Shown one piece after another: positions 7,104 to 8,131 of a DNA stretch of 13,090 nt (the stretch's first letter is position 1; every line of letters starts with the position of its first letter). Under the pieces are notes generated by a model that was not told where the DNA came from, did not search any database, and worked only from the letters and a program-made list of their open reading frames with translations. The position numbers and the translations under genes were made by a program. The DNA lies in the IMG/VR virus record IMGVR_UViG_3300029504_000072; one strand, given 5' to 3'. Source of the stretch: a virus. Taxonomy: Duplodnaviria; Heunggongvirae; Uroviricota; Caudoviricetes.

Positions 7104-7637
7104 ATGAATGCTAATATCAAATACGGCCTGTCAGCAGCCGTTCTGGCGCTGATTGCTGCAGGCGCGTCTGCTCCTCAAATACTCGACCAGTTTCTGGACG
7201 AAAAAGAAGGTAACCACACAGCGGCATACCGCGATGGTTCCGGCATATGGACCATCTGTCGGGGGGCCACGGTGGTGGATGGAAAACCCGTTTTTCCCGG
7301 TATGAAACTGTCGAAGGAAAAATGCGACCTGGTTAACGCCATTGAACGTGATAAGGCGCTGGCATGGGTGGAGCGCAATATAAAAGTTCCACTGACCGAG
7401 CCACAGAAAGCCGGTATCGCGTCATTCTGTCCCTATAACATTGGCCCTGGTAAGTGTTTTCCGTCGACGTTTTATAAGCGGCTTAATGCCGGTGATCGTA
7501 AAGGCGCATGCGAGGCGATTCGCTGGTGGATAAAGGACGGTGGACGTGATTGCCGCATTCGTTCAAATAATTGTTACGGTCAGGTTATTCGTCGTGACCA
7601 GGAGAGTGCATTAACCTGCTGGGGGATAGAACAGTGA
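7104..7637 (+). CDS. SAR endolysin (phage 21 R-type lysozyme, GH24)
   Basis: 177-aa ORF; weakly hydrophobic Gly/Ala-rich N-terminal signal-anchor-release segment ([18 protein letters not shown]); lysozyme catalytic spacing E-x8-D-x5-T in [16 protein letters not shown]. Pairs with the pinholin upstream. Confidence 0.9.
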
Positions 7638-8131
7638 ATCAGATATTCACGGTGATTTTGCTCGTGTTGGTAGGATTTGTCGTAGGTAATGTCTGGAGCG
7701 ACAGAGGATGGCAAAAAAAATGGGCGGAGCGTGATGCTGCCGAATTATCTCAAGAGGTAAATGTCCAATTTGCTGCTCGAATAATTGAACAGGGGCGAAC
7801 TATATCCCGAGATGAGGCTGTTAAAGATGCACAACAGAAAGCCGCTGAAATTTCTGCCAGGGCTGCTGATCTGTCTGATAGTGTTAACCAGCTGCGTGCC
7901 GAAGCAACAAAATATGCCATACGCCTTGACGCAGCGCAGCATACCGCAAATCTTGCCGCTGCCGTCAGAGGCAAAACAACCAAAGCCGCCGAAGGAATGC
8001 TCACCAACATGCTCGGAGATATTGCAGCAGAAGCTCAGCTTTATGCTGAAATTGCTGACAAACGCTATATCGCAGGAGTGACTTGTCAACGGATTTATGA
8101 ATCTTTAAGAGATAAAAAATATCAGATGTAG
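7634..8131 (+). CDS. Rz-type i-spanin
   Basis: GTG start overlapping the endolysin stop (GTGA); RBS GGGGGATAG; N-terminal TM ([18 protein letters not shown]) then a long Ala/Gln/Arg-rich coiled-coil-like periplasmic region. Confidence 0.85.
7827..8081 (+). CDS. Rz1-type o-spanin lipoprotein, embedded in the +1 frame of Rz
   Basis: Wholly inside Rz in another frame; signal peptide with lipobox LTSC ([23 protein letters not shown]); proline-rich mature part. Start uncertain: ATG 7827 (GAGG 9 nt upstream) or ATG 7812; the track's 7785 is a TTG. Confidence 0.7.

Follow-up and report, generated by a model that had tools for sequence, protein, structure and literature searches.

Probable rzpQ/rzoQ-type embedded spanin genes of a Qin-like lambdoid prophage of Escherichia coli and the conservation of the o-spanin frame within the i-spanin gene

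Two described systems resemble most closely the spanin locus analyzed here, in which the gene of the outer-membrane lipoprotein subunit (o-spanin, Rz1) is contained out of frame within the gene of the inner-membrane subunit (i-spanin, Rz). One is the rzpQ/rzoQ pair of the Qin prophage of Escherichia coli K-12 MG1655 (NC_000913.3), annotated as a cryptic prophage, where rzpQ (b1553, 498 nt) harbors within it rzoQ (b4689, 255 nt), the latter encoding an 84-aa 'putative lipoprotein RzoQ' with the UniProt entry RZOQ_ECOLI ('Putative lipoprotein RzoQ' / 'Rz1-like lipoprotein, Qin prophage'). The other is gene 55 of phage N15 with its embedded o-spanin, which the spanin census of Kongari et al. 2018 (PMC6139136) counts among the two-component spanins of the embedded type. 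The locus in question lies on a DNA stretch of 13,090 nucleotides from the IMG/VR virus record IMGVR_UViG_3300029504_000072 (Caudoviricetes), which as a whole is called the window below. The region 7634..8131 on its plus strand, on which all elements of the spanin pair and the endolysin and holin genes are located, very probably encodes the two subunits of an embedded two-component spanin and represents the rzpQ/rzoQ allele of a Qin-like lambdoid E. coli prophage. As such, the feature is already known as rzoQ and as part of the N15-type embedded spanin family. The exact 84-aa sequence from the window is found in public collections as a 'hypothetical protein'.

Many E. coli chromosomes match the region at 99.9% identity, and in these the annotation pipeline PGAP names the genes rrrQ (lysozyme) and rzpQ (DUF2514). 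In the alignment to the Qin protein, which had been proposed in an earlier note on this DNA, made from the letters alone, the embedded product Rz1 is identical to K-12 RzoQ in 79 of the 84 residues. With K-12 Qin the locus shares an S21-family holin gene (annotated essQ in K-12, while the RefSeq record matching the window has essD), rrrQ and rzpQ with rzoQ inside, the same downstream order of cspI, ynfQ, ynfN and gnsB, the lengths of 165 and 84 aa, the embedding in the +1 frame and the o-spanin stop codon 50 nt before that of the i-spanin. It differs by five Rz1 substitutions (H2R, K5N, P6L, Q28K and I81T), by a DNA divergence of about 5%, by a ydfR-like gene cut to 72 aa and an extra minus-strand open reading frame (ORF) before the endolysin gene, and by an upstream (early and late-regulator) side that is unlike the one in K-12. 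The likeness to N15 is more distant and covers both proteins: the DUF2514 Rz encoded by gene 55 shares 59% of its residues, and Rz1 reaches 65% identity within residues 22-84 (E = 5e-25), with the same length of 84 aa, Cys at position 23 and the shared strings PLPSEAKQP and CSPTCSE. However, the N15 Rz has an N-terminus that is 16 residues longer, the signal peptides have diverged (lipobox LVSC in N15 and LTSC in the window), and N15 is a living linear-plasmid prophage. A homologous pair is explicitly annotated as i-spanin and o-spanin in phage KLER1-1.

The outer gene of the pair (7634..8131) is a 165-aa ORF homologous to rzpQ, whose GTG start codon overlaps the stop codon of the lysozyme gene (GTGA within CAGTGA). 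Its product matches Pfam DUF2514 at 1.9e-38 (132.5 bits, the cutoff being 26, with an alignment over positions 4-160 of the 161 in the profile) and the PHROGs family phrog_312, 'Rz-like spanin', at 3e-58, and the sole other Pfam match in a scan at E values up to 0.1 is a sub-threshold one to HAUS6_N. A transmembrane segment is placed at residues 4-22 (7643..7699) by the best 19-aa Kyte-Doolittle window, with a mean of 2.34. In an AlphaFold2 (AF2) model calculated from the single sequence, this segment corresponds to a helix of residues 4-21, and the entire protein is helical, with further helices at 24-53, 59-110 and 117-163 separated by breaks at 54-58 and 111-116. Since the model is of moderate confidence (mean pLDDT, the predicted local distance difference test score, of 65), it was read for secondary structure only, and Rz is modeled accordingly as an N-terminal transmembrane helix followed by an all-helical periplasmic domain. 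Cys151 (codon 8084..8086) is the only periplasmic cysteine of the i-spanin and occupies an invariant column of the family alignment. A search of PDB sequences with the Rz profile retrieved no solved relative, but only weak, non-significant leucine-zipper matches.

The embedded gene, homologous to rzoQ, spans 7827..8081 (84 aa plus the stop codon) and is located wholly within the i-spanin gene in its +1 frame. The full open stretch in this frame extends over 7785..8081, or 98 codons when counted from a TTG, where (7785-7634) mod 3 = 1, and it contains two in-frame ATG codons at 7812 (89 aa) and 7827 (84 aa). With L the length of the i-spanin, the embedding spans 0.39 L to 0.90 L and ends 50 nt ahead of the Rz stop, which is close to the usual embedding range of 0.4-0.5 L to 0.9-1 L (PMC6139136). 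The N-terminal 22 residues (7827..7892) bear the features of a lipoprotein signal peptide, with a charged n-region (R4, K5 and K8), a hydrophobic core for which the best 12-aa Kyte-Doolittle window covers residues 13-24 with a mean of 3.0, and the lipobox L20-T21-S22-C23 (7884..7895), which fits the consensus [LVI][ASTVI][GAS]C (PMC6139136) and is followed by Val at the +2 position. The sequence also conforms to a rule of the PROSITE PS51257 type, as coded for the analysis, that combines the core pattern, a Cys within positions 15-35 and a Lys or Arg among the first seven residues. Signal peptidase II is thus predicted to remove residues 1-22 and to leave a mature protein that begins with the lipidated Cys23, for which outer-membrane sorting is predicted because the +2 residue is Val and not Asp.

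Mature Rz1 comprises 62 aa with nine prolines (14.5%), eight of which are within the first 37 residues, and the longest proline run is the PP at P54-P55. Two motifs characterize this part of the protein, P44-L-P-S-E-A-K50 (7956..7976), composed of columns that are at least 90% conserved in an alignment of 39 o-spanins, and C58-S-P-T-C62 (7998..8012), conserved in the same alignment, which contains the two periplasmic cysteines of the o-spanin. In PHROGs, Rz1 matches phrog_11621, likewise designated 'Rz-like spanin', at 2.9e-8. The earlier note had described an internal +1-frame ORF with a lipoprotein signal, an LTSC lipobox and a proline-rich mature domain; the ORF and the signal were found as described, with Cys23 retained on careful translation, while the mature domain is proline-rich in its first two thirds only, the last ~22 residues containing no proline at all. 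Its designation of the arrangement as the classic embedded spanin architecture is in agreement with the curated K-12 pair, the PHROGs matches, the relatives and the cassette.

Strong evidence that the embedded frame is a gene comes from relatives drawn from annotated phage genomes and from a one-genome-per-species collection (36 loci, with Rz 28-99% identical). Among the diverged phage genomes, the nine in which the Rz gene is complete (phiNP, Fraca, N15, Skarpretter, ST846-OXA48phi9.1, C130_2, Kc259, KLER1-1 and Lumpael) all retain a long +1 ORF with a lipobox, in Lumpael on the second-longest open segment, and the same was observed in 32 of the 36 one-genome-per-species loci, the four exceptions being three truncated fragments (L044, L047 and L049) and one locus from Mixta tenebrionis (L039). 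The latter is otherwise typical, but carries LTNC ahead of the conserved Cys, with Asn at the -1 position, so that either the variant lipobox is tolerated or the copy is inactivated. Taken over the diverged relatives, the +1 ORF is kept without any frame disruption in 38 out of 38, a Cys follows the lipobox in all 38, and 37 fit the PROSITE lipoprotein rule. When the window is included, 33 of the 39 products have a length of exactly 84 aa, and the residues present at +2 are V, L, A, S, N, G and T, with Asp in none of the 39. Common to the 39 o-spanins are PLPSEA(K/R) and CxPxC followed by L..KL..ML..L, and both CxPxC and PLPSEA(K/R) persist even in loci of Burkholderiaceae, Pseudomonadales and Pararheinheimera. 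The conserved frame, the 84-aa length, Cys23 and the motifs extend to relatives whose Rz is only 28-60% identical. A scan of IMG/VR yielded near-identical copies only, which are informative on intactness and not on divergence, and the embedded ORF is intact in all 75 of them. Frame-disrupting differences, which the earlier note had named as an observation that would speak against the gene, were thus found neither in these copies nor in the 38 diverged relatives.

Two of the loci originate from metagenome-assembled genomes labelled Veillonella parvula (L016) and Bacillota bacterium (L037), which contain an Enterobacterales-type Rz/Rz1 with Rz 90% and 56% identical to that of the window, respectively, and these pairs probably reflect binning contamination and not true hosts.

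The imprint of the second frame is also visible in the outer gene. In a codon alignment of the 39 Rz genes, the nucleotide identity at the third position of Rz codons is 0.39-0.52 outside the overlap as compared to 0.65-0.73 inside it, and an identical codon is used for an identical Rz residue at 0.42-0.56 outside and 0.73-0.79 inside, with this codon retention dropping to 0.50 past the Rz1 stop. At position 3, an entropy per column of 0.74 within the overlap contrasts with 1.26 outside it (Mann-Whitney p = 3.6e-8), while position 2 exhibits no such difference and position 1 a slight shift in the opposite direction (0.70 inside and 0.56 outside, p = 0.037). Since position 3 of Rz codons is position 2 of Rz1 codons, constraint at this position is the expected mark of a protein encoded in the +1 frame. 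The wobble positions of Rz are constrained only across the overlap. As the comparison as a whole shows, purifying selection acts on both frames, in Enterobacterales and beyond.

Judged by what Summer et al. 2007 and Kongari et al. 2018 use to recognize embedded two-component spanins, Rz/Rz1 exhibits an i-spanin transmembrane segment with helices, an o-spanin lipobox, full nesting, the position in the cassette, the lack of Asp at +2 and periplasmic cysteines. The mechanism can be pictured from the work of Berry, Young and colleagues on lambda Rz/Rz1 (PMC6139136, PMC5295617). Rz1 would be exported, lipidated on Cys23 and cleaved by signal peptidase II, and, because of the Val at +2, the Lol system would deliver it to the outer membrane, into the inner leaflet, with Rz anchored in the inner membrane in an N-in/C-out orientation. 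The C-terminal parts of the two periplasmic domains would then bind each other, generating a complex that passes through the murein meshwork and bridges the periplasm, in which C151 of Rz and C58/C62 of Rz1 probably form Dsb-dependent disulfides that probably stabilize it. Upon destruction of the peptidoglycan by the S21-type holin and the SAR-type (signal-anchor-release) endolysin, the spanin complex would be free to collapse, and the collapsed complex would fuse the inner and outer membranes and remove the last barrier to phage release.

Several points weigh against this picture, and the first of them concern lambda itself. BLASTP against lambda revealed no detectable homology, with E = 1.1 for Rz1 and E = 1.4 for Rz, and the similarity to lambda Rz1 that the earlier note had proposed to examine is thus not found at the sequence level. 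Because of this lack of similarity, the mechanism is transferred by architecture and context and not by homology. Membership in a sequence family with lambda Rz or Rz1 was rejected on these E values and on the absence of a Pfam family for the o-spanin, and the pair is a functional analogue of lambda Rz/Rz1 that belongs to the RzpQ/RzoQ-N15 sequence family. What is shared with lambda is the N-terminal transmembrane segment and the helical periplasmic segments of the i-spanin, an o-spanin lipoprotein fully embedded in the +1 frame from ~0.4 L to ~0.9 L of the i-spanin, the location of the pair directly 3' of the endolysin gene, periplasmic cysteines in both subunits and a proline-rich linker after the lipidated Cys. 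However, mature Rz1 of the window is 62 aa long as compared to 40 aa in lambda, it lacks the penta-proline run that is a feature of the lambda protein (PMC6139136), it has two conserved cysteines (CSPTC) where lambda has one, and its C-terminal third is proline-free and probably helical. Due to the greater length, the missing penta-proline and the probable C-terminal helix, the details of the interaction between Rz and Rz1 may differ from those in lambda. In addition, neither Pfam nor NCBIfam yielded a family for the 84-aa product, which is recognized by PHROGs alone, the K-12 label of RzoQ is still 'putative', and a literature search for rzoQ or Rz1 of the Qin prophage retrieved no experiment on the RzpQ/RzoQ family.

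These same differences, together with the invariant PLPSEA(K/R), could be read as the sign of a structurally distinct embedded spanin class, in which o-spanins of the RzoQ/N15 type contact the i-spanin in a mode other than that of lambda Rz1, a tentative proposal that is rather doubtful at present. In such a mode, CxPxC could form an intramolecular disulfide loop, and the amphipathic, proline-free C-terminal helix (L..KL..ML..L) might engage in a coiled coil with the second helical segment of Rz, with which it shares its coding DNA. If true, this would place an uncharacterized class in about 39% of complete E. coli genomes, outside Pfam, NCBIfam and the sampled automatic RefSeq annotation.

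The surroundings of the pair speak partly for the spanin assignment and partly against activity of the pair. In favor of the assignment, holin, lysozyme and Rz genes follow in that order on the same strand, so that pinholin, SAR-type endolysin and spanin are combined in a cassette of the phage 21 style. The endolysin gene, the rrrQ homologue (7104..7637), matches Phage_lysozyme PF00959 at 2.2e-23 and phrog_7 (endolysin) at 7e-61 and is annotated rrrQ, and a hydrophobic stretch rich in Gly and Ala at the N-terminus of its product resembles a SAR domain. The first gene of the cassette, at 6217..6432, encodes a holin of the phage 21 S (pinholin) family and matches PF04971, 'Bacteriophage P21 holin S', at 2.3e-34, with the annotation essD in RefSeq. 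For this gene, the mechanical ORF begins at ATG 6133 (6133..6432, 99 aa), while the RefSeq form covers 6217..6432 (71 aa), and the annotated product begins with MKSM, which looks like the S21 dual-start holin/antiholin motif. The phage 21 cassette likewise consists of a pinholin (S21), a SAR endolysin (R21) and, in last place, the spanin genes (Rz/Rz1), the likeness of the spanins themselves being limited to this order. Between the holin side and the endolysin gene, about 450 bp with a minus-strand ORF are extra, and, in comparison with K-12 Qin, in which ydfR and rrrQ are directly adjacent, 6437..6976 is an insertion or replacement within the cassette. It contains a DUF1327 ORF (6437..6655, 72 aa), shorter than the 103-aa YdfR of K-12, followed by a terminator-like hairpin on the minus strand (6674..6655), and the minus-strand ORF, whose ATG form covers 6767..6976 (6681..6977 in RefSeq for the locus L001) and which matches phrog_25324 of unknown function.

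Upstream of the holin gene are an integrase-like gene (90..1184), an IS5 transposase gene (1982..2962), a blc-like lipocalin lipoprotein gene on the minus strand (3230..3754), a YbgA-family gene (3947..4906) and a gene of an AraC-type regulator (5304..6026), and no late antiterminator Q gene is present in this part of the window (90..6116). A terminator-like hairpin (6095..6116, plus strand) lies just ahead of the holin gene. Downstream of the spanin genes follow cspI and then ynfQ and ynfN, as in Qin, and the Rfam cspA thermoregulator RF01766 (112 bits) was matched at 8337..8753, covering the leader and part of the coding region of the cspI-like cold-shock gene (8492..8707).

The cassette thus looks stranded from late transcription, and its lysis genes are probably silent unless such transcription reaches them. 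Because the window contains no late antiterminator and the ~450-bp insertion precedes the endolysin gene, expression of the pair in the host is doubtful. It follows that Rz/Rz1 could be an intact but stranded relic of a decayed prophage, not expressed in the host as part of a working lysis program and contributing nothing, a reading that is fully compatible with the identification of the genes and remains a serious contender, if somewhat short of an even chance. It is favored by the integrase-like, IS5, blc-, ybgA- and AraC-like genes that occupy the place upstream of the holin, by the insertion that parts the holin side from the endolysin, by matching E. coli loci that are studded with IS1, IS2, IS3 and IS66 and truncated phage genes, and by the annotation of Qin as cryptic in K-12. 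On the other hand, the holin, endolysin, Rz and Rz1 ORFs are all intact in the window, and Rz1 is undisrupted at an identity of at least 95% in 75 of the 75 IMG/VR copies and in 2112 E. coli genomes, although, within this one species, recent descent may be all that such conservation indicates. Also speaking for a functional pair are the deposited genomes of the phages 2H10, PhiR63_1, HannyBb and mEp460, in which Rz is identical over residues 21-165 and Rz1 is 98.8% identical.

For the embedded gene itself, the position of the start codon has to be considered. The earlier note had pointed out that the 98-aa version begins at a TTG, and this version was indeed traced to mechanical ORF finding; the upstream extension of the open frame (7785..7826, with TTG 7785 and ATG 7812) is most likely untranslated as a part of Rz1, whose start is most likely ATG 7827. 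The equivalent Met is separated by a single codon step from a preceding stop in at least 20 relatives, with open segments beginning 'KM...', 'RM...' or 'NM...', so that only this Met is usable there, and, counted from it, the Cys falls at position 23 in nearly all relatives. A Shine-Dalgarno-like GAGG element, whose function would be that of a ribosome-binding site for this start, is located 9 nt 5' of ATG 7827 (7814..7817) and falls in conserved Rz codons for RDEAVKDA, and the curated K-12 rzoQ begins at the equivalent position. A real gene with a start further upstream, at TTG 7785 (98 aa) or ATG 7812 (89 aa), has in its favor that the frame is open from 7785 and that ATG 7812 is common to some close relatives, whose products read '...VMRLLKM...'. 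However, the stops just upstream of the conserved Met, the constant position of Cys23, the GAGG spacing and the K-12 curation make this very improbable, and both starts were rejected on the stops in the relatives. Even with a longer N-terminus, the mature protein would be the same, since the added residues would be cut off together with the signal peptide.

The length of the ORF provides only weak evidence for a gene and is the last point to be counted on the contrary side. When 10,000 synonymous recodings with the protein fixed and 10,000 within-gene codon permutations were used as the chance test, the +1 frame was open over 98 codons or more in 1.2% of the synonymous Rz recodings (P about 0.012). 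In addition, the DUF1441-family gene of the window (10608..11102) contains an even longer open +1 frame of 120 codons with a 111-aa inner ORF from a GTG (10666..11001), which is a caution that ORF length alone is no proof. As length alone is unconvincing, the case for Rz1 rests on comparison. A chance open frame in a real Rz gene, with no protein made and a merely coincidental lipobox-like string, would accommodate these length data and the missing Pfam and NCBIfam matches, but it is effectively refuted, and left with hardly any probability, by the comparative data and not by length, given the retention of the frame, the 84-aa length, the lipobox Cys23 and both motifs where Rz is 28-60% identical, the constraint on synonymous sites of Rz confined to the overlap, the PHROG spanin match and the curation of the gene as RzoQ in K-12 and UniProt.

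With the spanin assignment of the pair retained, its annotation in the databases is incomplete. The 255-nt rzoQ is present at an identity of at least 95% in 2112 of 5426 complete E. coli genomes (about 39%). When 60 RefSeq records were sampled evenly down the match ranking, all 60 left rzoQ unannotated and gave only rzpQ/DUF2514, as compared to the curated NC_000913.3, which alone annotates it; the expectation of the earlier note that gene callers miss the embedded gene was confirmed. Most phage records with the RzpQ/RzoQ family also leave the o-spanin out. The reverse of this usual error is seen in Escherichia phage Eeyore (L011, 1342..1875), where the Rz region is split into three coding sequences (117, 270 and 117 nt), the middle one, 'Rz-like spanin', being in the o-spanin frame, so that the caller took the embedded gene and broke the outer one. 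A further peculiarity is a protein cluster at 90% identity that contains K-12 RzoQ (84 aa) together with many 177-aa proteins named lysozyme, including its representative, and this looks like a database clustering artefact that joins unrelated proteins of adjacent genes.

Taken together, the locus adds little new biology, and its practical value is in the systematic annotation gap that it exposes. What remains beyond this is an uncharacterized o-spanin family with conserved motifs of its own and with no Pfam or NCBIfam model. For embedded genes, the locus represents a clean textbook case, of purifying selection in two frames, in which the wobble sites of Rz become conserved at one border of the embedded gene and cease to be so at the other.

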